64,000 nt of DNA from Candidatus Caldarchaeum sp. (GTDB taxonomy: Archaea > Thermoproteota > Nitrososphaeria_A > Caldarchaeales > Caldarchaeaceae). Of the stretch, positions 11,229 to 64,000 are shown piece by piece; positions within the stretch are counted from its first letter, which is position 1; every line of letters begins with the position of its first letter. The stretch covers positions 1,496-65,495 of the forward strand of contig JAWBRA010000004.1 in NCBI GenBank assembly GCA_038844785.1, in the 5' to 3' direction. A program made the position numbers and the translations under genes. A model generated the notes under the pieces. It was not told the DNA's origin. It worked only from the letters and a program-made list of their open reading frames with translations, and searched no databases.

Positions 11229-12216
11229 CGACATCCAGATAATAACGGCTCGAAGGGTTGGCGAGAAGGACAACCCTGCTTACATCATCCTCAACAACTT
11301 TCTTAAAGCCTATTAAGCCAGCAAGGTTTTCAGCGAACACCCCTATCTCTTCAACGGATGGCATGTTTGTCTTCTGGAGCCTTAGCTGCGACTCGCCCAC
11401 ATGTGTATAGCCCTTGCATTCTACAAAGTCTGGTGAGGCCAGCTTGATGAGGTCGGCATATTTTTCAGGGCAGTGCATGTTGACGTTCTTGACTAGGGTG
11501 AGCCGTATTACCTTCCTGCAGGAGAACTTAGCCATCAGCTCCAGGGATTTGAGCAGCCTCTCCCAGCTGTCTGGAATGAGCGGTTTACATGTCTTAACAT
11601 GAGTCTCTTTATCTGGTCCGTAGAGGCTTATGTAGAGAGATGTAGGCTGAGCTTTTTGGATAAGCTCTTCAAGCCTCTCCGGCATCGTTCCGTTTGTTAC
11701 AAGGAAAGTGGTCATACCCCTGTTGGAAGCCTCCTGTATGAGGTCGGCGAGATATGGGTAGAGAGTTGGCTCCCCGTCCAGCGAAATCGCTAAATGCTTT
11801 GGCGTCATAGCCTCATTAAACATCTGTTTTGATACTTTGGGGTTGCCGCCGAAGCCTGACAAAAGCTGGCGTTGTTCAGCGATAATCATGTCCAGGAGCT
11901 TAGAAGGCTCTTCCCAGCCGCCGTCGAAAGGCTGAACCCTGTTGAGAGTATGGAAACGCCAGCAGAAGACGCACATCATGTTGCAGTACTGCAGCGATGG
12001 AGTCATCTGGATACATCTGTGGCTTTCTATCCCGTACCAGCTCTTGTAGCACATCTTTCCCCCGCGCAAAGCGGACTTCGTCCAGTGGCATACTTTGACG
12101 GCTGAATGATTTCCCACTATCCTGTATCCCGCCTGCTTAAACTTCTCAACCTGCTTCACTTCTTTTCGGAAGGGTTTCTCGACTCTAGCGACCTCAATCG
12201 TCTGAGCCATTCCCAA
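11206..12216 (-). CDS. taw1: radical-SAM tRNA 4-demethylwyosine synthase (Taw1/TYW1 archaeal homolog)
   Basis: CNMMCVFCWR radical-SAM CxxxCxxC. Upstream auxiliary cluster region KVCHWTKSALRGGKMCYKSWYGIESHRCIQMTP matches archaeal Taw1. Confidence 0.75.
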   Translation of the reverse strand: MGMAQTIEVARVEKPFRKEVKQVEKFKQAGYRIVGNHSAVKVCHWTKSALRGGKMCYKSWYGIESHRCIQMTPSLQYCNMMCVFCWRFHTLNRVQPFDGGWEEPSKLLDMIIAEQRQLLSGFGGNPKVSKQMFNEAMTPKHLAISLDGEPTLYPYLADLIQEASNRGMTTFLVTNGTMPERLEELIQKAQPTSLYISLYGPDKETHVKTCKPLIPDSWERLLKSLELMAKFSCRKVIRLTLVKNVNMHCPEKYADLIKLASPDFVECKGYTHVGESQLRLQKTNMPSVEEIGVFAENLAGLIGFKKVVEDDVSRVVLLANPSSRYYLDVATRLNRT

Positions 12217-12410
12217 ACCGTTAAGAAATCCGACCCATTAAAAAAGGTTGAGAAAATACATGACTAAAAACCGTCTCTGGAGCGAAGGGGAGGAGAAAAC
12301 ACTTCAGTCCTCAATATTTATAAATAGGCGTCCAGAAGCACCTTTTTTCCTGTAAACGGTTTGTGTTTTCAACGGAAATTGAAGGTAGGGAAAAATAGGG
12401 GGGAGGTTTG

Positions 12411-12498
12411 GCTGGAGGCAACCAGCATGACAACACTTGAGGCAAAACGTGTTGGAAACCCAAGCGACCTAACACTGGAGGCAACCAGCATGACAACA
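12411..12498. repeat. two exact 25-bp direct repeats CTGGAGGCAACCAGCATGACAACAC separated by a 38-bp unique spacer
   Basis: Copies at 12411-12435 and 12474-12498. Geometry is CRISPR-like but there are only two units and no cas genes in the window. Confidence 0.6.
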
Positions 12499-12824
12499 CC
12501 TAAGAACCCCCAAAGAAGAGAGAGGCCGGTATGTTAAATACATAGTCATGTATGGGATTGTGAGACCCATACATGTTAAAGGCTTTGTCATACCGGCTTG
12601 GGGTTTTTCTCTGCTGTCTATGGTGGTATGACCTCCAGCCTCTCTCCTGACAGCCTCTCTGATTCTTCTTATCGTTTGTTCCTCGTCTTTGGCCTTTATC
12701 CCTGTTCCTCCTTTTGATACCATCGTCAGACGCTGTAGCGTTTTTCGGAGATGTCCGTTGAATATCTTCGGTTTTCCGCTTTTCCTGTCTACCTTGTACA
12801 GTCTGAGGTAGTCTTTGATTTTTC

Positions 12825-13160
12825 TTATAAGTCTATGTATGTCATAAGCTCGGCTAAAGATTCTCTCGCCATCAGATGGTTATCTCCCCCGATTCCCAGA
12901 GCCTCGACAACCCTATTGTAGGCGGGTATCCTTTTACCCGCCTCAGAGACTATAATCTCCGCCATTTTAGTCATCTTCTCCTCCAAAGACTTGACAGCAT
13001 CTTTCAAGACCTCTCTTTCAACTCCGCTTAAAGCCCTCATCCTGTTCAACACGCTTCGACAGCTCTTAAACAGGCCCCTATACCCGCAGGTTAATCTACG
13101 CATAACAAGGATGTCTTCATTGACCTCTTTGAACCCTCTGCTCTCCAAAGCCATCAACAC
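12825..13160 (-). CDS. hypothetical small protein (111 aa)
   Basis: ORF with protein-like composition in an otherwise degraded region; no recognisable motif. Confidence 0.25.
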   Translation of the reverse strand: MLMALESRGFKEVNEDILVMRRLTCGYRGLFKSCRSVLNRMRALSGVEREVLKDAVKSLEEKMTKMAEIIVSEAGKRIPAYNRVVEALGIGGDNHLMARESLAELMTYIDL

Positions 13161-13379
13161 CTAGAATATCCCTATGGGTTGAAGACGGAACACCACATTT
13201 CAGCTATGGGAAGCCTCTGTTTATTCCATCAGGCCGTCAGCCAAATTATGACAGGAGATATTGTAGAAAATGCTGTCAAACCTTCTCCAACAGGGATAAA
13301 CACCCCAACTACAACAGAATACTAAGGAAAAAACCAAGAAAAAAGAGAAAAAGAGCGTCTCAGAGCTTTTAACAAGCCC

Positions 13380-13687
13380 TTTAGGAACTTCCGTAGGCTT
13401 TGCAGAACCTGTTGGTGGAGACAGCTGGCGATGTATTTCGGTGCTGTTCCGGTAGTAAGCGATCACTTCGCCATGCCTGAAATAGTGGGTGACGCCGGTG
13501 TCGTGGTAAAGTGCCTAACAGGCTCTGGAACGACGATGGAACTCACAACTGGGAGTTTAAGAAAAAGCTGGACGAAGGGCCTTACGAGGAGTTGGTGGAA
13601 AGGATTGTGGACGTGGTTCACGTGCTCTTAGACGACGATTACTGGGAAAATCTTTCCGTCAAACCCATAAATCGAGCAATCTTTTAA
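13380..13687 (+). pseudogene. C-terminal remnant of a family-1 (GT4-type) glycosyltransferase, split by a frameshift near 13505-13515
   Basis: Frame A reads ...LAMYFGAVPVVSDHFAMPEIVGDAGVVVK. Frame B reads NDDGTHNWEFKKKLDEGPYEELVERIVDVVHVLLDDDYWENLS. Both resemble the conserved GT1 C-terminal region. No N-terminal half is present. Confidence 0.45.
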
Positions 13688-13696
13688 AAGAAACTG

Positions 13697-14581
13697 ATGC
13701 GGGTTGCTGTGGTGGGGGCCCTCACAATAGACATCACACACGGTAAAACCTGCATTATCGGGGGCCCACCTTGGTATGCGGGCACAGCTGTACATGCTTT
13801 GAGAGCCGACGCCGTGCTATACTCAGCAGTGGGAGGGGATTTTCCAGACGATTTCATGCTGAAACTGGCGGAAGCTGGGCTTGACACCTCTAACGTCATA
13901 AAAGTTGAGGATGCCAGCAGCTATGTCTTCGAACCCGTTTTTAAAGACGGGGTGAGGGTTCTTAGGCTAGTCTCACAAGGCCCTCCGCTCCCTCAAAACA
14001 TTCTCGAAAACGTGGACACCGAAGCTGTGATAGTTTCGCCCGTGTTCAAAGAGGTTGGGAAAGAACATGTTATGCAACTTCGGTCGAGGACAGAGGTTTT
14101 GTCAGTGGATCTGCAAGGTTTTCTGAGGCAGCGGGACAGCAACGACTACATATTTTTACGCGGTCTTACGTTAACTGAAATATTCAGGGTGGCGGATGTA
14201 ATCCATTGTTCAGCTGAGGAGGCGGTTGCCTTGACCGGCCGCGAAAATGTTTTGGATGCTGCCTCTGCCTTGGCGAAGCTAGGGGCGAAAAACTGTTTGG
14301 TCGGTTTTACGGATGGGCTTCTCCTCACAGACTCCCGAAGTTTATCGCTCATTGAGGTAGTTGAACCAGTCATTACGGACGAAGGAACAGGCGCCGGAGA
14401 CATACTTACTGGCGCGTTCACCACGTTGTCTGCGGCTGGAACACCTCCTGAAGAAGCTGGCGTTAAAGCCTTGGAGGTTGTCGCGCGCTCACTCAAGAAT
14501 CCGCCGCCTGACCGTGTTCCCAAAGACTTGGAGCTCACTGGAAAGCTTTGCCGCGTTGTCTGGAGGAAATCTCTCGCCTAG
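13697..14581 (+). CDS. PfkB-family carbohydrate/nucleoside kinase (ribokinase-like)
   Basis: C-terminal TGAGD motif (EGTGAGDILTGAF) and N-terminal GG-type glycine motif. Confidence 0.7.
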   Translation: MRVAVVGALTIDITHGKTCIIGGPPWYAGTAVHALRADAVLYSAVGGDFPDDFMLKLAEAGLDTSNVIKVEDASSYVFEPVFKDGVRVLRLVSQGPPLPQNILENVDTEAVIVSPVFKEVGKEHVMQLRSRTEVLSVDLQGFLRQRDSNDYIFLRGLTLTEIFRVADVIHCSAEEAVALTGRENVLDAASALAKLGAKNCLVGFTDGLLLTDSRSLSLIEVVEPVITDEGTGAGDILTGAFTTLSAAGTPPEEAGVKALEVVARSLKNPPPDRVPKDLELTGKLCRVVWRKSLA

Positions 14582-14816
14582 CCTTCGAAAAAGCAAACCT
14601 AGCTTTAGAGGTAAGCCTAGGATATTTTTGTCTAAGCGCTGACTCAACTATTTTAGCCAGCTCGTCACTTATGCTGTACCTAGGTATAACGTTTTTTCTG
14701 TAGTTCAAGATTGCGGCTGCTAACGGCGAGTAGAAGGCCAGCCTCGGCTGCTTTAGAGCTTGCTTCACTGCTTCTCGCAGTTTTTTCTCATCTATCTCTT
14801 CTTTCTGTTTTTTCAT
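14535..14816 (-). CDS. hypothetical small basic protein
   Basis: ORF only; overlaps the kinase 3' end by 47 nt. Confidence 0.2.
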   Translation of the reverse strand: MKKQKEEIDEKKLREAVKQALKQPRLAFYSPLAAAILNYRKNVIPRYSISDELAKIVESALRQKYPRLTSKARFAFSKARREISSRQRGKAFQ

Positions 14817-15216
14817 GATTATTTGGTTTAATTTTTACCTTATAACGTTTACCTCTTCTTAGCAAATTTTCGTTGTTCGAAAAATCGAACAAAGTATGAG
14901 ATTAAATAGGAAGGCGTTAATTCAACCAAGACCGCATCTCAAGGGAGACCGAGTTATTTCCTCTTTGATAAGTAAACGGAGGTTGTTTTAGGTGGTTTTC
15001 AGCGGCTATAGAAGCGGGATAACACCCCCAGAGTCCACTTAAAGCAGGTTCAAGTAAGCAAATCGGTTTTGGGTATCGGACAGTTGGATGAATAATTCGA
15101 TGCTTGTTTAGTTAACTTTTTGGGTCCGAAGCCTGTCTTTCCCTAGGCGTTTTAAAAATAAAACAAGGAGCTTTACCTCCGTTAGGCAGTGTATGTTCTG
15201 GTAAAAGGTAAAAGTT

Positions 15217-15594
15217 TTACGCCGAAGACCTGTCAGCTATATGTTTGACGAATCTTTCTGGACGAAGTCGTTGGACCACAGCCTCGAAGGCTTTCTCCGG
15301 CTCTGACTCCTCTCCGCAAGTGTATATGTCGACTGTGGCGTACCGGTATTGGTGCCAGGTGTGGATGGCTATGTGGCTTTCCTTCACCAAAGCTATGACG
15401 GAAACGCCTCCCTTCTCCCCTCCGAACTTCCACGACCTGATCGAGACAAGCGTCATCTTGGAAATGTTGACTGCGTCCAAGACGGTCTGTCTGAGGAACT
15501 TCTGGTCTTTGAGCAGGTTTTCTGGACATCCATAAAGGTTGCCGAAGACGTGTTTACCGACAATCTGCTTTTGAATTGCTTTGCTTTCCAGCAT
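15217..15594 (-). CDS. speH: pyruvoyl-dependent S-adenosylmethionine decarboxylase proenzyme family (SpeH/archaeal ArgDC-like)
   Basis: KESHIAIHTW self-cleavage (ES|S) motif; size 125 aa. Confidence 0.75.
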   Translation of the reverse strand: MLESKAIQKQIVGKHVFGNLYGCPENLLKDQKFLRQTVLDAVNISKMTLVSIRSWKFGGEKGGVSVIALVKESHIAIHTWHQYRYATVDIYTCGEESEPEKAFEAVVQRLRPERFVKHIADRSSA

Positions 15595-22405: not shown

Positions 22406-22996
22406 GTGGCGGACGTGGAAATTCCACAGCCCCAGAAGGTAAAGCTAAGCCCAAAAGACTCTGGGCTGATAATAGTGGACATGCAGAACGATTTCTGCCA
22501 CCCAAGCGGCCGCTTATACGTGCCCGCGGCGCCTTCAACAATACCCGCTGTAAAAAGGCTTTTGGACATGGCCAGGAAGAGCGGCGTGAAGGTTTTCTAT
22601 ACCCAGGACTGGCATGATAAGGGTGATCCCGAGTTCGCCATATGGGGTGAACATGCTTTGGCGGGCAGCTGGGGGGCTGAGATTGTTGAAGAGCTTAAAC
22701 CCGTTGCTGGGGAGATTGTTGTTAGAAAGCTAAGGTACGACGGGTTTTACGGAACACCCCTAGAACACTACCTACGGCTTTACAACGTCAAAAACCTCAT
22801 AGTCACAGGGACGGTTGCAAACATCTGCGTCCTTCACACCGCCGGTAGCGCAGCCCTTCGGTGGCTGAACGTCTACATTCCCGTGGACGCCGTCTCCGCC
22901 TTGAACGAGTTTGACATGAAAGCAGCACTAAGACAAGTCACATTCCTTTACAGAGGTATTTTAACACGCTCAGACCTGGTTGAGATAGAACAATGA
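22406..22996 (+). CDS. pncA: isochorismatase-family nicotinamidase/pyrazinamidase
   Basis: IIVDMQNDF and catalytic Cys in TGTVANICV; adjacent to NAPRTase. Confidence 0.65.
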
Positions 22997-24204
22997 GTAG
23001 AAAGCCTTCTCTCTTCGTGGCTTCTCCAGATAGAATTAAGAAAGGAGACGTAACCGATATTTACTTTCAAAGGACTAAGGCGATTTTGGAGAGAAACGCC
23101 ACTTCGGATGTTTCGGTTGTCGCTGAAACCCACGCCTATTCTCTGCCGCCGGGCTATGAATGGGCTGTTCTAGCGGGTGTTGAGGAAGTGGCTTGGCTTC
23201 TTGAAGGCTTACCCATCAACGTTTACTCGGTGGATGAAGGAACTATCTTCACTGAGATGGAGCCGGTTATCAGCATTGAAGGCCGTTACACGGACTTCGC
23301 TGTCTACGAGTCCTCTCTTCTAGGGATACTGAGGCATGCCAGCAGCGTGGCTACAAAAGCCGCAAGGGTTAAGATTGCGGCAGGCGAAAAATCTGTTTTG
23401 TTTTTTGGATTAAGATGTGTGCATCCAGCTGTAACCCCCATGGTTGACAGGGCCGCATATATAGGGGGTTGTGATGCTGTTTCAGGCGTTGTTGGAGCCG
23501 AGATGCTGGGCGTCAGGCCAATGGGCACTATGCCCCACGCCTTAATAATAGCTATGGGAGATCAGAGGAGGGCGTGGAAACTCTTTCACGAGGTAATGCC
23601 CCCCGAGGTCCCCCGTATAGCCTTGGTTGACACTTTCTCCGACGAGAGGTTCGAGTCGCTGTTGGCCGCTGAAACGCTTGGAAAAGACCTGTACGGCGTC
23701 AGGCTGGATACGCCGAGCTCCAGACGAGGGAACATCCGTAAAATCATAGAAGAGACGCGCTGGTCTCTTGACATCAACGGGTTCAAGAATGTAAAGATTT
23801 TTCTGAGCGGTGGAGTGGATGAGGAGACGGTTAGGGAGCTGAGGGATGTAGTCGACGGCTTTGGTGTTGGAACATCGATTGCATTCCCAGCCTCCATAGA
23901 CCTCTCCCTCGACATAGTTGAAAGGGATGGGAAACCCGTCTCCAAGAGGGGGAAACTGCCCGGAAGAAAGCAGGTTTACAGATGCAGCAGCTATCATGAC
24001 ATTGTTACATTGTGGGGTAAAAGATTAGAATCATGTCCTGTATGTTCCTCCGAGGTCAGACCTTTGTTGAAGCCTTTGATAGAGAACGGTGAAATAGTCG
24101 GAGAACTGCCATCACCGAACGAGATCAGGGAATATGTTTTGAGCCAGCTGCGGCAGCTAAGTAAGCCGGGCGTTGTCTTCGGCAGGCCTAAGTTTTTCCT
24201 ATAA
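22993..24204 (+). CDS. pncB: nicotinate phosphoribosyltransferase (archaeal type)
   Basis: Size and conserved NAPRTase regions; 4-nt overlap with the nicotinamidase gene. Confidence 0.65.
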
Positions 24205-25591
24205 TGCCTCCTTTCGTCAGCTTCAGAAGGTCTAGGGTTTTTTCCACTTCAGCAGGCATTAGGATGTTTTCCTCAACCAGAACATCTTTGATGGTCTTGT
24301 TTTCTGCAAGCATCTTCTTCGCCACCTTGGCAGCCGCATCATAGCCTATGAGTGGTGCAACAACTGTTACCAGCGCTGGACTGGATTCCGCAAGCTTTCT
24401 GGCCCGTTTGACGTTAACCTTTATGCCTGCTATGCACTTCGCCGTAAGGTTGTCGCAAGTGTTCGAAAGCGTTGCAATTGATTCAATTAAGTCGTAGGCG
24501 ATGAGCGGCAGCCCCATGTTTAGCTCCAGCTCACCTAGCTTGCAGGCCTCCTCAACCGCCTTGTCATAACCTATGACCTGTGCGGCGGCAAGCATAGCTG
24601 ACTCAACGATAACCGGGTTGACTTTGCCGGGCATTATTGAAGATCCTGGCTGCACTGCGGGCAGCTCTATCTCGTTGATCCCTGTGTTCGGGCCGGAGGA
24701 CAGAATTCGCAGGTCGCCGCATATCTTCAGTAGCGAAACTGCGATGCTTCGTAGGGCTGCGGAGACTTCGAGGCAGCAATCCCGGCTTCCCATGGCTTCA
24801 AACCTGTTCTCAGCCAGTCGAAAATCTATGCCGGTCATCTGTTTCAGCTTCTCAACTACAAGCTTTCCAAACTCTGGATGCGTGTTAAGCCCGGTTCCTA
24901 CAGCCGTTCCCCCTATAGGAAGCTCGAGAACACTTTCGAAGGCTTTCGTAACCCTCGCCTTACCTTTCCTCACCATGGCTGCGTATCCTGAAAACTCTTG
25001 GCCGAAGGTCAGCGGGACAGCGTCCTGGAAATGAGTCCTCCCAGGCTTGACAACTTCACTGTATTCCTCAGCTTTCTTCGCCAGCTCTCTCTCAAGCCTT
25101 TCTAGGGCGGGGACCAGTCTCTCCTTTATCAGCATCGCGGTTGAAACGTTTATGGCTGTAGGTATGACGTCGTTGGTCGACTGGCCCATGTTCACATGAT
25201 CGTTTGGATGAATTATCTTCTTGTCTCCCCTTTTCTCACCCAGTATCTCCAAAGCTCTGTTGGCTATGACCTCGTTTGCGTTCATGTTGGTTGACGTACC
25301 TGACCCGGTTTGGAAAACGTCTACCACAAACTCCTTGTCGTGAAGACCGTCTGCTACCTCTATCGCCGCTTTCGCTATCGCCTCGCCTATTCTTCTGTCG
25401 AGGAGTCCGAGCTGCATGTTGGCTTCTGCAGCCGCATACTTGATTAAGCCCAGAGCCCTTATGAAGGGACGTTGAAACCTCAAACCTGATATCGGGAAGT
25501 TTTCGACGGCTCTGGCGGTTTGGGCGCCGTACAACGCGTCCGCAGGCACCCTCATCTGCCCAAGAGTGTCATATTCATACCGGTACGCCAT
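24188..25591 (-). CDS. fumC: class II fumarate hydratase / aspartase-family lyase, probably FumC
   Basis: GSGTSTNMN and [10 protein letters not shown] signatures. Confidence 0.7.
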
Positions 25592-41340: not shown

Positions 41341-42315
<975 letters not shown>

Positions 42316-44271
42316 TCACCCCCCGCTCCTCTTAACTATCCTAGGGCTGCCCCGAATCACTGCTTCCTTCAACCCGTCTCTCATCTCCGAGAAAGAGAAA
42401 GGCCTGCCGTTGTACTTGCATATTAGGTGGTCTACTTGATATCCTGTTCGGGCTCTCAGTAACGTGGCCAGCTGTCCCGTGTAGTTCTGCTCGACGCAGA
42501 TGACTTTTCTGTATGAGGAGATTAGGTTTTGCATGAACCTTGTGGGGAACGGGTTTAGAACTTTTATCTGGGCGAAGGCGAACCTCAGCCCCTCAGTCTG
42601 AAGATACTCTAAAGCATCCAGTATAGCTCCCTTGGTGGACCCCCAGCTTATCACTAGGTATGGAGCGTCGTGGTCCCCGTATATGGCAACTCTCTCGCTG
42701 TCAGGGATTTCTGCATCAGCTATCTCAATCTTTCTCATCCTCTTCTCCATCATTCTATCCCTGGTCGAAGGTTCTTCGCTTATGTGGCCGAACTCATCGT
42801 GCTCGTCGCCTGTGTTCCAGAAAATTCCGTTCTCAGTGCCTAAAACAGTGCGTGGTGATATGCCGTCCTCAGTAAATTTGAAACGTTTGTAGAGCCCGAG
42901 GGAGCTGTCCCAAGAGGTGAGTATCTTCCCACGGTCTATCAGGACTTTACTGGTGTCAAACACGTCGACTGTCATAGTGCTGTTCGCCAGAGCCTTGTCA
43001 AGGATGTGGATTACAGGTGTTTGATATCTTTCGGCGTAGTTGAACGCCTTTGCCACATCGTAGAAAGCTTCCTCTATGTCCCCCGAGGCCAAGACTATTC
43101 TGGGAAACTCTCCGTGTCCGCCGAAGATCGAGAAGAGTAGCTCTCCCTGCTCGTGTCTGGTCGGGAGACCTGTGCTCGGCCCGCCCCTTTGGTAGAGGGT
43201 GATGACTATAGGCACTTCATTCATCCCAGCCCATCCAATACCTTCAACCATGAGGTCGAACCCTGGACCAGAGGTTGCGGTGGAAGCTCGAACCCCAGCC
43301 AAGGCCGCTCCCGATATCATGTTTACAGCAGCTATTTCGTCCTCGCTCTGGACCACCACAATGGAGCCATGTCCGTTAAGAACCTCAGCCTCCTCGAGAT
43401 GTGGAAACTCGTTCCTGAGGTTGAAAACTTGATGGTCCTCAAGGTAAACGCTTTCATCGGCTGCCGGCGTGATGGGGTAGTATGTCTGGAATCTACATCC
43501 AGCCACAATTTTTCCAAGAGCGACGGCGGAGGTTCCGGAGATAAACAGCATTGGTTTTTTCTGTAGTGGTTGGACACGGTATGGGAAGTCCGGTGGAAAT
43601 GTTTTCTGAGCGAATTCCGTCGCTACCTCGGCGGCGGTTAGATTGTATTTCACCACTTTCGCCTTGGCTTTGAAAACCTGCGCCAGCGCCGTCTCAAGAT
43701 GGGTCAACGGTATGTTAAGCAAATGGAGGGAAACACCAACGGCTATTGTGTTTGTCATTCTTGCGAGAGCGCTGAGCTGTTTCTCACCCGTCAGCCCGCC
43801 AACCTTCTTAAGAAGTTCCATGTACGGTATTGGGTACAGTCTTACGCCGTTCCGACGCGCCACCTCCAAAACATCTCCAACTGTTTCACCCAGCTGTTCC
43901 CGTGTAAGTCTGGCTTGAACCCTTTCGAGAACGTTTTTCTCCAAAGTGGGGATTGAAGTTATTTTCTCGTTGACGGCCATCGAATCATAGATTATGCCGC
44001 CACCCCCAACCACCTCCCACGCATGCCTTATGATGGTTTCAGAGTCGAATGTGGCTAGAAGATGAACCTCATCCATGTGAGATCGAACCGGTTTGTCGGA
44101 GATGACGACGGAAAAATAGCTATGCTCACCTTTTATGTTTGAGTAATATTCTCTTTTTCCGAAAACATACAGGCCGTAGATGGCTGCTGCTCGGGCGAAT
44201 ACGTTCGCGGACGAGTCCACACCGGAGCCCTGCGCACCTCCTATCATCCAAGAAATTTTTGTATTAGCCAT
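42316..44271 (-). CDS. korA: 2-oxoacid:ferredoxin oxidoreductase alpha subunit (fused alpha/gamma, Sulfolobus-type two-subunit OFOR)
   Basis: 651 aa; N-terminal gamma-like domain and PFOR domain I/II motifs; directly upstream of the beta subunit. Confidence 0.8.
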   Translation of the reverse strand: MANTKISWMIGGAQGSGVDSSANVFARAAAIYGLYVFGKREYYSNIKGEHSYFSVVISDKPVRSHMDEVHLLATFDSETIIRHAWEVVGGGGIIYDSMAVNEKITSIPTLEKNVLERVQARLTREQLGETVGDVLEVARRNGVRLYPIPYMELLKKVGGLTGEKQLSALARMTNTIAVGVSLHLLNIPLTHLETALAQVFKAKAKVVKYNLTAAEVATEFAQKTFPPDFPYRVQPLQKKPMLFISGTSAVALGKIVAGCRFQTYYPITPAADESVYLEDHQVFNLRNEFPHLEEAEVLNGHGSIVVVQSEDEIAAVNMISGAALAGVRASTATSGPGFDLMVEGIGWAGMNEVPIVITLYQRGGPSTGLPTRHEQGELLFSIFGGHGEFPRIVLASGDIEEAFYDVAKAFNYAERYQTPVIHILDKALANSTMTVDVFDTSKVLIDRGKILTSWDSSLGLYKRFKFTEDGISPRTVLGTENGIFWNTGDEHDEFGHISEEPSTRDRMMEKRMRKIEIADAEIPDSERVAIYGDHDAPYLVISWGSTKGAILDALEYLQTEGLRFAFAQIKVLNPFPTRFMQNLISSYRKVICVEQNYTGQLATLLRARTGYQVDHLICKYNGRPFSFSEMRDGLKEAVIRGSPRIVKRSGG

Positions 44272-44953: not shown

Positions 44954-46120
44954 GTGAACAAAGTGATGACGGATTTCTTTCAAGTCTTCACCACGACGCT
45001 AGCCTTGTTGTTTGTCATCGTATGGGCAGCTATATTTTGGGCAAAGCTTAGGATATCTCGTGTGGTTGAAAAAATCTGCCGCTATCCATCTGAGCCTGTA
45101 CAAGACAAAGTTTCTATAATCATACCCGTGAGAAACGAGGAGAAGACGATCAAAAAATGTATTGAATCGCTGTTGTCCCAGAAGGGTTTTTCGAAAGAGA
45201 TTATAGTTGTTGACGACAATTCGACAGACTCGACATGGGAGGTGGCTAAAACATTCATTGCTGAGGGTGTCAAACTAGTTAGAGTTGGTGACCTGCCTGC
45301 TGGATGGGTTGGAAAAACATGGGCCTGCAACGTCGGGTATGAAAACTCAACAGGTGAATGGCTTCTTTTCACCGATGCGGATACAGAGTTTTCCGATGAT
45401 GTGGTGGTACGGGCCTTAAATGCTGCGAAAAGCTTGAGCGTCGACATGCTCACGTTTTATCCACGTTTAAGGTTCAGCAGTCTTCTCCACAAGACAGTGA
45501 TGCCCATACTTTTGACCGGGTTGTACTTTACGGGTAGGCCGCATGTTTTTTCAAAAGGGAGGTCGGCCTTCGCTTTCGGCAGCTTTATGCTCATAAGAAG
45601 ACAGGGTTACGAGAGGATAGGAGGGCATTCAGCGGTCAGAAACGCTGTCCTAGAAGACCGGGCTATAGCTGTTAGGGCTATGAAAACCGGGCTGCGTGCA
45701 TACTTTATCGACGCTACTGAAAAGCTTACTACTTCATGGAACGATGACTCCAGATCGTTGTGGAACGGTATGTTAAGGCTCTTCATACCTCTGTTTCTTA
45801 ATGCAGATTTGAAGCAGTTTCTGGTCTACTTTTCTCTGGCCGCAGCATGCTTTACGATTCCGTTGTCCGTTTTCCTGATGGGAAACTATTTGGCTGGGTT
45901 TGTCAGCTATGCTGCGGCTGTGCTGGTTCTCGGCCATGAAGCAAGACATCATTCGGCATCTGTCTGCCATGGTTTGCTCTGGCCACTGGGTGTAGCTGCT
46001 GTGGCGGCGGCCTTGCTAGTCGCATTCTATAAGTCGAGGACGAGACCCACGGTTAGCTGGCGAGGTAGAAAATACTTTGTAGAAATGGGCGAGCTCCACG
46101 AGGTTGCTACCGTTTGCTGA
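44954..46120 (+). CDS. family-2 glycosyltransferase with N- and C-terminal TM segments
   Basis: VSIIIPVRNEE...IIVVDDNSTDST DxD-type GT2 motifs. Confidence 0.7.
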   Translation: MNKVMTDFFQVFTTTLALLFVIVWAAIFWAKLRISRVVEKICRYPSEPVQDKVSIIIPVRNEEKTIKKCIESLLSQKGFSKEIIVVDDNSTDSTWEVAKTFIAEGVKLVRVGDLPAGWVGKTWACNVGYENSTGEWLLFTDADTEFSDDVVVRALNAAKSLSVDMLTFYPRLRFSSLLHKTVMPILLTGLYFTGRPHVFSKGRSAFAFGSFMLIRRQGYERIGGHSAVRNAVLEDRAIAVRAMKTGLRAYFIDATEKLTTSWNDDSRSLWNGMLRLFIPLFLNADLKQFLVYFSLAAACFTIPLSVFLMGNYLAGFVSYAAAVLVLGHEARHHSASVCHGLLWPLGVAAVAAALLVAFYKSRTRPTVSWRGRKYFVEMGELHEVATVC

Positions 46121-47075
46121 AGTAAATAATGCTTTCACGAGTCTCACCTATTTTCACTACTCTTCTGGTTGTGGCAGCCCTTTTACTAACAGCCACTATC
46201 CTGTCTACGGTCAACCCGACATCCTCAGCGATTTTAGCTGTCTCAACATCTGTTTCCACAACTTTGTCGGGAAAAACTCCTCCCCCGACGACCATCACAC
46301 CCTTTCCCCCCGGTTTGAGAACCCTGTTGATTTCAGCCAACGCCCTCTTCATGTCCTCGAAATAAAGAAAGGCCGCTGGAGGAAGGTCTCCGGAATACTC
46401 TGAATAGTTGATTTCTCTAGGCCTGACCCCTATGTAGGAACGCATGGATGGATGGCCTTCCCCCGAAAAGAAAAGCTCGTATTCGGGCCAGTAGCACTTG
46501 GTATACTCGATTTTGTTAAGATAGGGAGGTGAAGTGATTACGGCGTCAACTGTCTCATCCTCTAAGAAGCTTAAATCTCTGGCATCCCCTAACCTGACCT
46601 CCGCCGTCACATTCTTCAGAGGCATAGCTTCCACGTCTTTTATCATCATGTTGCACACCCTTCTCAAGGCCTTTCTCAACGACGGTATTCTAGGCTTGTC
46701 CCTCACCACTTTGACCACGGCCCCATCCCTATAGATGTAGGATGATCTTTCGGCGGCGGTGATTAAGGCTAGGGTGAAAAACCTTCGGTATTTTTCGTCC
46801 TCCACAGTCTGAAGCACTTTTTTGAAGAAAAAGATGTCTTCGAGGACGGGTTTTGGGAAAAGTTTTTTCAGAAAAGGCTGAACGACATATTTCTGCGGCT
46901 GAAACCTTTCACCAAGTATCCTGTCCCTTAGACTCCTGAGCAGGGCTACGTTGTAGTCCTGGATTTTGACGTCAGCTATGAATTGGAAGAGGGGTGAAAC
47001 CTCCACCCCCACAGAAGGAATTCCAACCTCACGGCAGGCCAGGCATGTTGTTCCAACACCCACGAACGGGTCCAA
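46107..47075 (-). CDS. (D/S)PPY-type amino-methyltransferase (DNA N6A/N4C MTase-like), TTG start, possibly 5'-truncated
   Basis: Motif I LDPFVGVGTT at the extreme N-terminus, motif IV VITSPPY about 155 aa later; no restriction endonuclease nearby. Confidence 0.5.
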   Translation of the reverse strand: MDPFVGVGTTCLACREVGIPSVGVEVSPLFQFIADVKIQDYNVALLRSLRDRILGERFQPQKYVVQPFLKKLFPKPVLEDIFFFKKVLQTVEDEKYRRFFTLALITAAERSSYIYRDGAVVKVVRDKPRIPSLRKALRRVCNMMIKDVEAMPLKNVTAEVRLGDARDLSFLEDETVDAVITSPPYLNKIEYTKCYWPEYELFFSGEGHPSMRSYIGVRPREINYSEYSGDLPPAAFLYFEDMKRALAEINRVLKPGGKGVMVVGGGVFPDKVVETDVETAKIAEDVGLTVDRIVAVSKRAATTRRVVKIGETRESIIYFSKR

Positions 47076-54032: not shown

Positions 54033-54737
54033 AAAGACTGGGAGGTTTGACGAACACCAGTAGACAGTGCCAAATACGTCCATGTGTGTTTTCACGGCGC
54101 GTACTTCGACACCAGCCTCAGCTGCCTTCAGGAGAAGCTTCCTGATTTTAGGGTCTCCCTCATCGCAGGGGGTGAAAAACTTTGCTAGCGGGTGGGCTGC
54201 CACAAAAACAATTATCGAAGGGTTTTGTTTGCGGAGAGACTCAAGCAGTTGTATGTGGCGTCTCCCCCTCATGGAGACTGTGTCGGGGTACATGGCCGCC
54301 CCGTCCTCCCGCAGGTAGACAGCGGATTTAAGCTCGACGAAAGTTTTTCCCCCTCTCTCGTCTGCAAAAACATAGTCTAGCCGGGTTTTCCCGACGACAA
54401 CCTCTCTTCCAACCATTTTCAATCCTTTTAACCATTGTATTAGGCCGTTGTTGAAAGCTGTCTCGAATGCTTTAGATTGAAGCCTTGTGTCGATTAGGGC
54501 TGCGTGTTCTCCCACCACAACCCCGACCAGCGTACCAGCTGTTTTATGGGACTTTTTGGGTATGTACAGTATTTCAGCTCCTTCGACGAGCAAGTCCGTG
54601 AGCTTGCCAGTGTTGGTTATGTGCAGGACCAGCTTCTCGCCGTCTAGTTGAGCCTGTCCAGAAAACCTGCTGAGCCTCGTGTTGAAACGGGCGCGTCGAA
54701 CATCGAGTCCGAATAACGGCGTGCAGTCACCTTTCAT
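54024..54737 (-). CDS. sfsA: SfsA-family (sugar fermentation stimulation protein) nuclease-fold protein
   Basis: Conserved SfsA N-terminal OB region and C-terminal PD-(D/E)xK-like core (LDYVFAD...GGKTFVELKS). Confidence 0.65.
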   Translation of the reverse strand: MKGDCTPLFGLDVRRARFNTRLSRFSGQAQLDGEKLVLHITNTGKLTDLLVEGAEILYIPKKSHKTAGTLVGVVVGEHAALIDTRLQSKAFETAFNNGLIQWLKGLKMVGREVVVGKTRLDYVFADERGGKTFVELKSAVYLREDGAAMYPDTVSMRGRRHIQLLESLRKQNPSIIVFVAAHPLAKFFTPCDEGDPKIRKLLLKAAEAGVEVRAVKTHMDVFGTVYWCSSNLPVFLT

Positions 54738-55859
54738 CTAGCTGCACATACTTTCTAGGAGACGGGCCAACATAAACAGCTCTCGGCCTTATCACACGGT
54801 TATCCTCCCAGTATTCCAGCACATGAGCTATCCAGCCCACAGACCTGGCAACAGCAAACATCGGTGTGAATATTTCCTTCTCGAGCCCTAGCAGATGGAA
54901 GACAGGCCCCGAGTAGAGGTCTATGTTTGGAATGACCGATTTCATACCCAGCTCACGCACCATAACCTCCCCCAGCTTGTTAGCTATGTTGAGAAGCGTG
55001 TAGTCTTTTTTAATCTCGGACAACTGTTCAAGGTATTTTTTGTAGATAACGGCCCCAAGGTCAAAGGTCTTGTAAACCCTGTGTCCAAAACCCATTATCT
55101 TTTTCTTTGCAACAGGCTGTTCAAGGACATATTTTTCGGCTTTCTCGGGAGACCCTATTGACATGAGCATTTCGAGAGCGCGTTCATTTGCACCACTGTG
55201 CAAAGGGCCCTTCAAAGCCCCTATCCCAGCGGTGATAGCTGAGTAAAGGTCTGCCATCGTTGATGCAACCACTAAGGCTGCGGTCGACGAGGCTGGAAGC
55301 TCATGCTCCGCATGTAAGATGAACGCCATGTCTATAACCTTTGATTCAAAACTGCTTGGCCGCCGTCCAGTAGCCATGTAGAGAAAGTTTGCGGCATGCG
55401 GTAGGCTGGGGTCTGGGTCAACGGGTTCGAGGCCTTTCTTCAACCTGTAGACGGAGGCGGCCAAAGTTGCCAACTTTATTATTCTCACGGCGGCTTTCAT
55501 CCATGCATCAACACACGTATTTTCAGCGTCGTTATCATATAGTGATAGTATGTCTAAGGAAGCTCTGACCACGCTTATCATCGGAGCTTCGCGAGGAAGT
55601 TCTTTAACAATATTAAGACAGCTGCGGGCAGTCTTCTTTCATCCCACAGTTTTCTGGAAAAATCTTCCAGCTCTTTCCTCGTCGGCAGCCTGCAGTGTAG
55701 AAGCAGGAAACACACCTCCTCGTAGGTAGAGTGTTCCGCAAGCTCTTCTATAGAGTAACCTAGGTAGTAGAGCTTTCCCCGCTCCACATCTATGTTTGAG
55801 AGTATTGTCTGCTTGATGGGGATGTTGTCGAGCCTTTTGTAAACACCTATGATGCTCAT
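54727..55859 (-). pseudogene. gltA: citrate synthase split into two reading frames by a frameshift near 55595-55612 (N-part 55859..55578, C-part 55581..54727, ATGA junction)
   Basis: The N-terminal 93 aa (GKLYYLGYSIEELAEHSTYEEVCFLL...) and C-terminal 284 aa (GFGHRVYK signature) together equal a normal archaeal citrate synthase of about 377 aa. The C-terminal frame stays open upstream (..LNIVKELPREAPM..) and aligns to the conserved LPKNTHPM region. Confidence 0.7.
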
Positions 55860-61840: not shown

Positions 61841-62203
61841 GTGTTTGAGATGTCGCCGAAAGAGGTTGCTGGGTTTCTCGAGCAGCTTTTCAAAAACAAG
61901 TTCGCCGAAGCGGAGCGGATGCTGCAGCAGCTCGAGGAAAAATATCCAGAAGAGAAGAGGTACATCCACGCACTCAAAGGCATATACCATTCCTATTCGG
62001 GTGAGGACCACGACTCACTAATCTACATGCTCTACTTGAATGAGGAGATTAGGAAACGGAGGCGTGAAATAATCGGCCACTTGGAAAAGCTTTCAAAGCT
62101 GTTGGGAAAGGAGGATAGATATTTTACCGCATGGAGAGACGTTATACAGCTTTCAGACAAGCTTCCAAAACCCGCGAAAGCTTCACCTACATCAGAAGGT
62201 TGA
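61841..62203 (+). CDS. hypothetical helical protein immediately downstream of radA
   Basis: ORF; 3-nt spacing from the radA stop. Confidence 0.3.
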   Translation: MFEMSPKEVAGFLEQLFKNKFAEAERMLQQLEEKYPEEKRYIHALKGIYHSYSGEDHDSLIYMLYLNEEIRKRRREIIGHLEKLSKLLGKEDRYFTAWRDVIQLSDKLPKPAKASPTSEG

Positions 62204-62486
62204 AGAAAACAATCCATGAAAGAAGGTAGACGCCAGCATATCCTCCAGCCCCGTTCACGTATGATTGCCGTCTACGGACCCGCATGCCACCTGCCCTCCA
62301 CAAAACTTCAGCCAAAACCATGTACAGCAAGCAGGCTGAGAACAAGAGTAGGTAGGTGTACAGCGGGGTTTTAAACAGGGCTACGGCGTAGGCGGACAAG
62401 TATCCGTAGACCGCAGCCGTCAAAACCTTTATCCAGTAAACGTAGTCGAAACCCAAAACTATCCGTTGTTCTGCCTTCAAAACCAT
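62187..62486 (-). CDS. small membrane protein (3 TM), hypothetical
   Basis: Hydrophobic translation. Confidence 0.3.
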   Translation of the reverse strand: MVLKAEQRIVLGFDYVYWIKVLTAAVYGYLSAYAVALFKTPLYTYLLLFSACLLYMVLAEVLWRAGGMRVRRRQSYVNGAGGYAGVYLLSWIVFFNLLM

Positions 62487-62543
62487 GAATTAAATCTTGG
62501 CTGAACCGAGGTTTTAATCCAACCATGCCCTAGTTTGTCTGGG

Positions 62544-64000
62544 ATGGTGCAGCTGAGCTCGGCGGAGATAGCCGTGCTGGTTAAGGAGATAGGCCCGATA
62601 GTTAGGCAGTCTTTTGTGAAGAACGTTTATGGAGTGGGCTCTAATTCCTTGGCGCTCAAGCTTTCCAAGCCTGGCTTCGGTACCTTCGAGCTCTGTCTTG
62701 CCGCCGGCTCGGCTTTCTACTACACCGATAAAACCCTGCCCAAGCCCGAAAAGCCCAGCGACCAAATAGCTCGGCTGAGGAAGCTGATAACGGGGCTAAA
62801 AATAACGGAGCTGGTGCAAAAAGGCTCTGAAAGAATAGTAGAGTTACGGTTTGAGAAAAACAATCTTTACCTCGTGGTTGAGCTGATGCCTCCGGGCAAC
62901 ATAGTTTTGTTGAAGGATGGGCTGGTTGTCTGGGCTTTGGAGTTTTATGAAAAGGCTTCTAGGACGGTTAAAAGAGGAGTTGAATACAAGCCTCCCGCTG
63001 AAAAGTTCTCTGCCCTGCCTGGGGTCCTTCCGAAAAACTTTTTCAGCATGCTGAACCCAGGCTCCCCCATCGTCGCCTCCCTGTCAAGAGACCTTGGACT
63101 AGGCGGCAAGTATGCCCAGGAAGTGCTTTTCCGAGCAGGCGTAGACAAACAAGCTAAGACCTCCTCGCTCACGGATGAGGAGAGGCAGAAAATCTCCGAC
63201 GCTTTGTCAGCTGTTTTGACCGAGGTTGAATCGCCTAAGCCAGCCGTCTACTATGTCGGTGATGAAGCGGTCCCATCCGTCATAGAACTGAAGTCTCTGG
63301 CTGACGCCAAACACGTCAGTACAAACATTTTCAGCGAAGCCGTGATGACAGCCCATCTTCATGATATGGCCGAACAAGAGAGGAAACTTTTAAGCAAACA
63401 AATAATCGAGAAAATAAAGAATCTCGAGAAAGAAAAGAACGACAGACTCTATGTTGTGAAAACCCTATCGGAAAAGATGAAAGTCCTGGAAAATTTTATT
63501 GAGAAAATACGTTCTGCATCCCACCTACTCGAGGATGTTTGGACAGATCCTGAGAAAAAGGCCGCAGCTATAGCGGAGGCGGCAGGATGCAAAGCAGTTG
63601 TGAAACAGGATCTTTTACAGCTGGAGATGGGGGAGGCAAAGCTGACCCTTAGGAAAGGCGAGCCACTCCACCGACAGCTGGGTAAGCTTTTTGACGAGAT
63701 GAAAGCTTTGAGGAAAACGGTCGCTAAGCTGCAGAACGAGGTTGAACAGCTAGAAACTAGGATTAAACAAGCTGAAGCGGAGAAGCAGGCTTTAGCCGCT
63801 TTGGTAACTGTGAGAAAGCCTGAGGCAAGAAAACCGAGAAAACCTTTCATGGAGTTCAGGACATCGGGCGGTTTCACCGTCATGTTGGGCAGAGACGCTA
63901 GCTCTAACGTTCTTCTTCTCAGAAAACACCTGTCAGACGATGATTTGGTGCTACATGCCGATATCCCAGGTTCGCCAGCAACCATATTGAAAAATGGAGC
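62544..64000 (+). CDS. 3'-partial NFACT-family protein (archaeal RqcH/Tae2/FbpA-like; NFACT-N, coiled coil, NFACT-R/DUF814)
   Basis: Continuous open frame from ATG 62544 to the window end (about 485 aa) that is absent from the ORF track. N-terminus MVQLSSAEIAVLVKEIGPIV...; C-terminal FMEFRTSGGFTVMLGRDASSN...LVLHADIPGSPATIL resembles DUF814. The antisense ORFs 62945..63172 and 63449..63985 are rejected. Confidence 0.65.
   Translation, partial: MVQLSSAEIAVLVKEIGPIVRQSFVKNVYGVGSNSLALKLSKPGFGTFELCLAAGSAFYYTDKTLPKPEKPSDQIARLRKLITGLKITELVQKGSERIVELRFEKNNLYLVVELMPPGNIVLLKDGLVVWALEFYEKASRTVKRGVEYKPPAEKFSALPGVLPKNFFSMLNPGSPIVASLSRDLGLGGKYAQEVLFRAGVDKQAKTSSLTDEERQKISDALSAVLTEVESPKPAVYYVGDEAVPSVIELKSLADAKHVSTNIFSEAVMTAHLHDMAEQERKLLSKQIIEKIKNLEKEKNDRLYVVKTLSEKMKVLENFIEKIRSASHLLEDVWTDPEKKAAAIAEAAGCKAVVKQDLLQLEMGEAKLTLRKGEPLHRQLGKLFDEMKALRKTVAKLQNEVEQLETRIKQAEAEKQALAALVTVRKPEARKPRKPFMEFRTSGGFTVMLGRDASSNVLLLRKHLSDDDLVLHADIPGSPATILKNG

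Follow-up and report, generated by a model that had tools for sequence, protein, structure and literature searches.

A citrate synthase gene spread over two reading frames is very probably a decaying unitary pseudogene of one Candidatus Caldarchaeum lineage

In the window, the stretch of 64,000 nucleotides of DNA from Candidatus Caldarchaeum sp., an archaeon of hot springs that is uncultured, which was analysed as a whole, citrate synthase is laid out on the minus strand at 54727..55859 as two overlapping open reading frames. The upstream ORF (55578..55859, minus strand) comprises 93 codons closed by a TGA, and the downstream ORF (54727..55581, minus strand) comprises 284 codons counted from an internal methionine, Met94, and is reported by gene callers as a separate protein (P0003). 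Both appear in the ORF list and both match the Pfam family PF00285 (Citrate_synt), the upstream piece over profile positions 2-82 (E = 8e-21) and the downstream piece over positions 89-357 of 357 (E = 1e-88); the domain is complete in no single frame, the loss of 1 nt that the orthologues retain having spread it over two. The frames meet in an ATGA overlap (55578..55581, minus strand) in which the ATG at 55581-55579 shares bases with the TGA at 55580-55578. The former is the old Met94 codon and the latter an out-of-frame stop that closes the shifted N-terminal frame, the sister gene described below reading CCA ATG ATA AGC at this point. This layout is the one described in the first-pass annotation of the locus, which was right about the family of both ORFs, about their coordinates and about the C-terminal frame remaining open upstream of its ATG, as it does back to a TGA at 55641-55639. 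Its attribution of all 93 N-terminal residues to citrate synthase holds for the 82 codons in the native frame (M1-L82) but not for the last 11 (ILLKNFLAKLR), which are out-of-frame read-through. Neither piece has gained an in-frame stop.

Insertion of a single base near 55615 yields a conceptual product of 377 amino acids. This repaired product is homologous over its full length to the solved archaeal type-I citrate synthases (1vgp, 6abx/6aby and 1aj8), from which the window differs in having its frame broken after codon 82. It aligns with the S. tokodaii enzyme 1vgp at E = 3e-107, with no gap at the junction and one short gap further on, with the M. sedula enzyme 6abx at E = 4e-102, again ungapped at the junction, and full-length also with the P. 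furiosus enzyme 1aj8, the E values against solved structures ranging from 3e-107 to 3e-92.

The site of the missing base is given by DNA alignments to the sister gene, which reads C TTT A where the window reads C TT A (55614..55617, minus strand); the outgroup has GTT TTG AAA. In codons, the sister has GTC TTT AAT and the window GTCTTAAT, and in a wider view GCT GTC TTT AAT ATT in the sister stands against GCTGTC-TTAATATT in the window, with the gap at alignment column 244. The frameshift is therefore a contraction of a three-base homopolymer (TTT or AAA) lying 34-36 nt upstream of the ATG, a little upstream of the 'gttaaagaac' stretch (55608-55599) near which it had originally been placed. 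Across the whole gene the window and sister DNA are 91.4% identical with two gaps, one of 1 nt and one of 3 nt. The second of these lesions, with its junction at 55476..55477 (minus strand), is an in-frame deletion of TCT, the serine codon of RIISKIATL, in a column that is ungapped in 12 relatives.

The best database matches are all MAGs of 'Candidatus Caldarchaeum sp.', formerly placed in the Aigarchaeota. In three NCBI MAGs the two pieces, of 284 aa (P0003) and 93 aa (P0241), are both annotated proteins (accession pairs MEM2237158.1/59.1, MEM2483348.1/49.1 and MEM2745298.1/99.1), and both occur in Logan assemblies as well. Next in similarity comes an intact protein of 378 aa (P0001, MEM4280874.1) that is 88% identical and belongs to a sister lineage, where it is found on nine contigs; the seven of its loci that were retrieved (L003-L009) stem from four NCBI assemblies and three Logan runs. 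A 379-aa orthologue with 76% identity (P0002) lies in the same gene context in a third lineage, which serves as the outgroup. The order AMP-binding synthetase, citrate synthase, SfsA, UbiA, HTH regulator is common to window and sister, so that the sister citrate/methylcitrate synthase occupies the same locus between the same neighbours (the acyl-CoA synthetase upstream, SfsA and UbiA downstream), and it carries the same ATGATA. Unlike the window gene, it runs in one frame, keeps the TTT, the serine codon and the DPRA and GPLHGGAN motifs, and shows no break in any column of at least 98% conservation.

Comparison with orthologous loci, a check proposed along with the first description of the split, thus finds the syntenic orthologues intact and the reading frame broken in the window lineage only. 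In the sister, in the outgroup and in Caldarchaeum relatives further away, the orthologue is one uninterrupted ORF of 378-385 aa, and among relatives the split is unique to the window's lineage, shorter matches being labelled 'partial'. When the GTDB species-representative collection was scanned with lineage-specific peptides, the only orthologues were the intact sister gene and a relative of 75% identity; the species representative with the intact gene is the MAG QQ_201709_bins_146 (contig JAWACZ010000002.1), and it is probable that the species cluster of the sister includes the lineage of the window. The S11 look-up led to genomes of the window's own lineage only. No protein encoded between 44 and 64 kb of the window is identical to its sister counterpart.

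Alignment of the surrounding DNA places the two lesions in context. Between 44,730 and 64,000 the window aligns with the sister over 19,275 nt with exactly two indels, both within citrate synthase, and between 14,182 and 35,592 it aligns over 21,417 nt with 13 indels, all of them intergenic or upstream of likely true starts. Over the roughly 40.7 kb of alignment with the sister in total, no coding indel occurs other than the 1-nt and 3-nt deletions of citrate synthase.

Several other features of the window and its relatives may be recorded here. Seven of the 13 indels in the 21-kb alignment fall in the intergenic interval 14816-15217, a local hotspot that precedes the AdoMet decarboxylase gene. 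At 12216-13697 about 1.4 kb holds only short minus-strand ORFs (62-111 aa) with no Pfam match, which is unusually gene-poor for a compact genome. Four consecutive ORFs of 99, 83, 75 and 56 aa at 62187-63449 (minus strand) likewise match no Pfam family; they contain no indel relative to the sister, and any break there would for that reason be common to both lineages. Next to them, at 63449-63985 (minus strand), lies an ORF of 178 aa with no Pfam match, for which the sister frame (L013) has an internal stop and 21 of the 178 residues differ. The ORF at 46107-47075 (minus strand) is methyltransferase-like, its residues 2-28 matching positions 187-213 of 221, the profile end, of N6_N4_Mtase, and a further methyltransferase motif lying at residues 235-259; its architecture may be permuted or truncated. 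In the sister lineage, a quinolinate phosphoribosyltransferase is called as two proteins of 255 and 129 aa at 11388-12563 of L096 (GCA_038891535.1), the same gene being a single one of 403 aa in L095 and in the window (22993-24204); a frameshift, a pseudogene or an assembly error could each account for the two-piece form. The tRNA and Rfam scans of the window gave no matches.

Relaxation of selection on citrate synthase is apparent from a three-taxon relative-rate test (window, sister and outgroup; Tajima chi-square), in which 27 lineage-specific amino-acid changes fall to the window and 5 to the sister (chi-square 15.1, p = 1e-4). The nine neighbouring genes pooled have 42 against 48 unique replacements and fumarase 14 against 7, neither difference being significant. 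The replacements of the window lineage are found in both pieces, seven in the 82 native N-terminal codons (V4I, G9R, G25V, P36S, R56C, R72W and N76R) and 20 in the 284 C-terminal codons. A foreign or recombinant allele was considered as the source of this extra divergence and rejected, since the dS of citrate synthase (0.20) is like that of its neighbours (range 0.06-0.24) and the changes strike universally conserved columns. Apportioned by branch, dN comes to about 0.050 on the window side and about 0.0085 on that of the sister. On the branch of the window omega is about 0.5, not 1, from which we infer a loss of constraint about midway between the divergence of the two lineages and the present. 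Strict codon parsimony, with small counts, gives nonsynonymous to synonymous ratios of 7/8 for the window and 1/11 for the sister (Fisher p = 0.04).

The replacements include residues that are hardly ever changed elsewhere. Set against 115 full-length homologues, the window copy deviates at seven columns of 98% conservation or more and ranks first of 116, the sister and the median both standing at zero. At a threshold of at least 90% there are 12 breaks: G9R, G25V, M95I, L98V, L202M, G222S, L249P, P268L, R269G, E297G, F310I and P373Q. In the alignment, AGT (Ser222) at 55195..55197 (minus strand) replaces the glycine beside the catalytic His221, changing GPLHGGAN to GPLHSGAN, and CTT GGG (Leu268-Gly269) at 55054..55059 (minus strand) replaces the codons CCG CGG for the proline and arginine of HRVYKTxDPRA, so that HRVYKTFDPRA becomes HRVYKTFDLGA. 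In the residue mapping on 6abx, Gly269 (CGG to GGG) aligns with M. sedula Arg262, a position that we take, via the His+9 spacing, to be that of Arg329 in the pig enzyme. Three M. sedula arginines, Arg262, Arg332 and Arg351', bind oxaloacetate/citrate; in the window the first is lost and the other two are retained as R339 and R360. The role of binding oxaloacetate/citrate is described for Arg262 in M. sedula (PMC6386500) and for Arg329 in the pig (bioRxiv 10.1101/2024.11.06.622199). The catalytic residues, all in invariant columns, are kept in the conceptual translation, the window His221, His260 and Asp314 aligning with M. sedula His214, His253 and Asp307. A further difference, at M. sedula Asn182, where the window has the proline of 'HELPAS', is a known natural variant (PMC6386500) and normal for the clade.

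The decay is thus moderate, with omega at about 0.5, the catalytic residues kept and no in-frame stops, and some residual constraint may still act on the gene. The first-pass annotation had listed a very recent inactivation among the possible causes of the split; inactivation stands, whereas 'very recent' does not fit with a 3-nt deletion, 27 replacements and the loss of a substrate-binding arginine.

Taken together, these observations make it very probable that the two-frame citrate synthase is a decaying unitary pseudogene, fixed in the population of one Candidatus Caldarchaeum lineage: the frame is broken relative to syntenic intact orthologues of 378 and 379 aa, the lesion is reproducible across assemblies and selection is relaxed. 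The gene is that of a citrate or 2-methylcitrate synthase, and the pseudogene is an ordinary one of a kind already known. One base has dropped out of the three-base homopolymer (TTT or AAA) at 55614-55617, such that translation from the normal start shifts frame after codon 82 and stops 11 codons on, at a TGA that overlaps the internal Met94 codon by chance; the '284-aa protein' is the rest of the old frame counted from Met94. Apparently released from selection, the gene has in addition dropped the serine codon and gathered about five times as many amino-acid changes as its sister, with the active-site arginine that holds oxaloacetate among the residues lost. Presumably no active enzyme is made.

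A different reading would have the pieces working as proteins, either the 93-aa and 284-aa chains together or the 284-aa chain alone, expressed through ATGA coupling and acting as citrate synthase or in a new activity. Overlaps of this type are typical of coupled genes, and the junction had been seen at first as a possible sign of a split gene, but the ATGATA (Met94-Ile95) predates the split, being present in the intact sister gene, and the overlap is therefore incidental rather than an evolved coupling signal. No purine-rich Shine-Dalgarno-like motif occurs in the 20 nt before the ATG. The catalytic histidines and aspartate are kept, omega on the window branch is below 1 and NCBI annotates both pieces as proteins, all of which would suit a functional enzyme; set against these are the relaxation of constraint in both pieces and the change of the oxaloacetate-binding arginine to glycine together with the loss of other near-invariant residues. 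Naturally split genes are recognized by a split that is conserved in relatives and by purifying selection on both parts, whereas here the split occurs in no other lineage, the next relatives being intact at 378-385 aa. We regard a functional split or truncated enzyme as very unlikely.

That the true gene is intact and the assembler merely dropped one base is very unlikely indeed. Six contigs carry the split, some belonging to three NCBI MAGs and others to Logan read-level assemblies, and these assemblies can be taken as independent because they differ from the window by SNPs elsewhere (1 SNP in 8,855 nt for L001 and L002; 5 SNPs in 20,438 nt for the third MAG, L093). All data for the locus do come from MAGs, and an indel of one base in a short homopolymer is the classical signature of error, but error would have had to produce the identical split in each of these separately built assemblies, and would do so in surroundings that are otherwise free of coding indels against the sister; it would also leave the additional 3-nt deletion, the excess of 27 over 5 replacements and the lost arginine unexplained. 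Runs of two to three bases are not error-prone on short-read platforms. A search of JGI metagenomes with a pattern permitting either allele of the deletion site returned 0 matches, neither allele being hit. Judging from the assembled sequences, the frameshift is real and fixed in the population across several samples.

The first-pass annotation had also hinted, with reference to DsrE and GT cases, at more general assembly errors or ongoing gene decay. Where it can be tested this is unsupported, given the lack of any other coding indel in the aligned 40.7 kb, and a frameshift or assembly-error problem throughout the window was rejected, Pfam scans of about 65 ORFs having given no other split family. 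A DsrE gene was not found in the window. The GT case is probably the GT2 glycosyltransferase gene at 44954-46120 (plus strand), which is complete (Pfam profile positions 1-167 of 168) and free of indels against the sister; no other protein of the region has diverged as far from its sister counterpart as the GT2 product, in which 52 of 388 residues differ.

Programmed recoding, in which a -1 ribosomal frameshift or transcriptional slippage would restore the full-length enzyme, is scarcely credible, for although a -1 shift near GTC TTA ATA could join the frames, the signals tested give it no support, the orthologues are unshifted and intact, and the product so restored would still be without its substrate-binding arginine. 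Programmed -1 frameshifting is known in archaea from the alpha-L-fucosidase gene fucA1 of Sulfolobus solfataricus, in which a slippery A AAA AAT heptamer is used and active enzyme is produced. Like fucA1, the window gene consists of two overlapping ORFs of one enzyme that could be joined by a -1 shift. It differs in that no slippery heptamer of the form X XXY YYZ is present at or near the site (GCT GTC TTA ATA TTG), in having no stimulatory structure beyond that of shuffled sequences in a stretch of 126 nt that takes in the site and what follows it (z = -0.67; 47 of 200 shuffled versions reach an equal or better fold), in that the shift is not conserved and in the decay of its coding sequence. 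Nor does the site contain a long A or T run on which the polymerase could slip.

Intact genes encode fumarase (24188-25591) and the OFOR subunits (41341-44271), and a decay of the whole TCA cycle is unsupported, the fumarase showing no significant excess of replacements either; as far as fumarase and the nine neighbours serve as a test, the decay appears to be specific to citrate synthase. A second, intact citrate synthase elsewhere in the genome could account for the relaxed constraint. It is very unlikely that the lineage has lost its only citrate synthase, in which case it would make citrate with an unrecognised enzyme or rely on its neighbours, or, more radically, that the two pieces form a working or repurposed two-chain enzyme. 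Citrate synthase has been reported across the Aigarchaeota, for which a reversed oxidative TCA cycle has been proposed (Hua et al., 2018; PMC6053391), so that its loss in one lineage bears on metabolic reconstructions. It may also be that the window gene did not encode a TCA enzyme at all, since an acyl-CoA synthetase adjoins it and the name given by NCBI is 'citrate/2-methylcitrate synthase'.

The public annotation of the three MAGs presents both fragments as 'citrate/2-methylcitrate synthase' proteins with no pseudogene flag, so that automated reconstructions will credit the lineage with a citrate synthase and, by extension, with the full TCA or reversed oxidative TCA cycle. Read as a pseudogene, the locus would provide a clean and datable case of the lineage-specific loss of a gene of central metabolism between close hot-spring populations of about 94% nucleotide identity, in which fumarase and the neighbouring genes have meanwhile remained under normal constraint.
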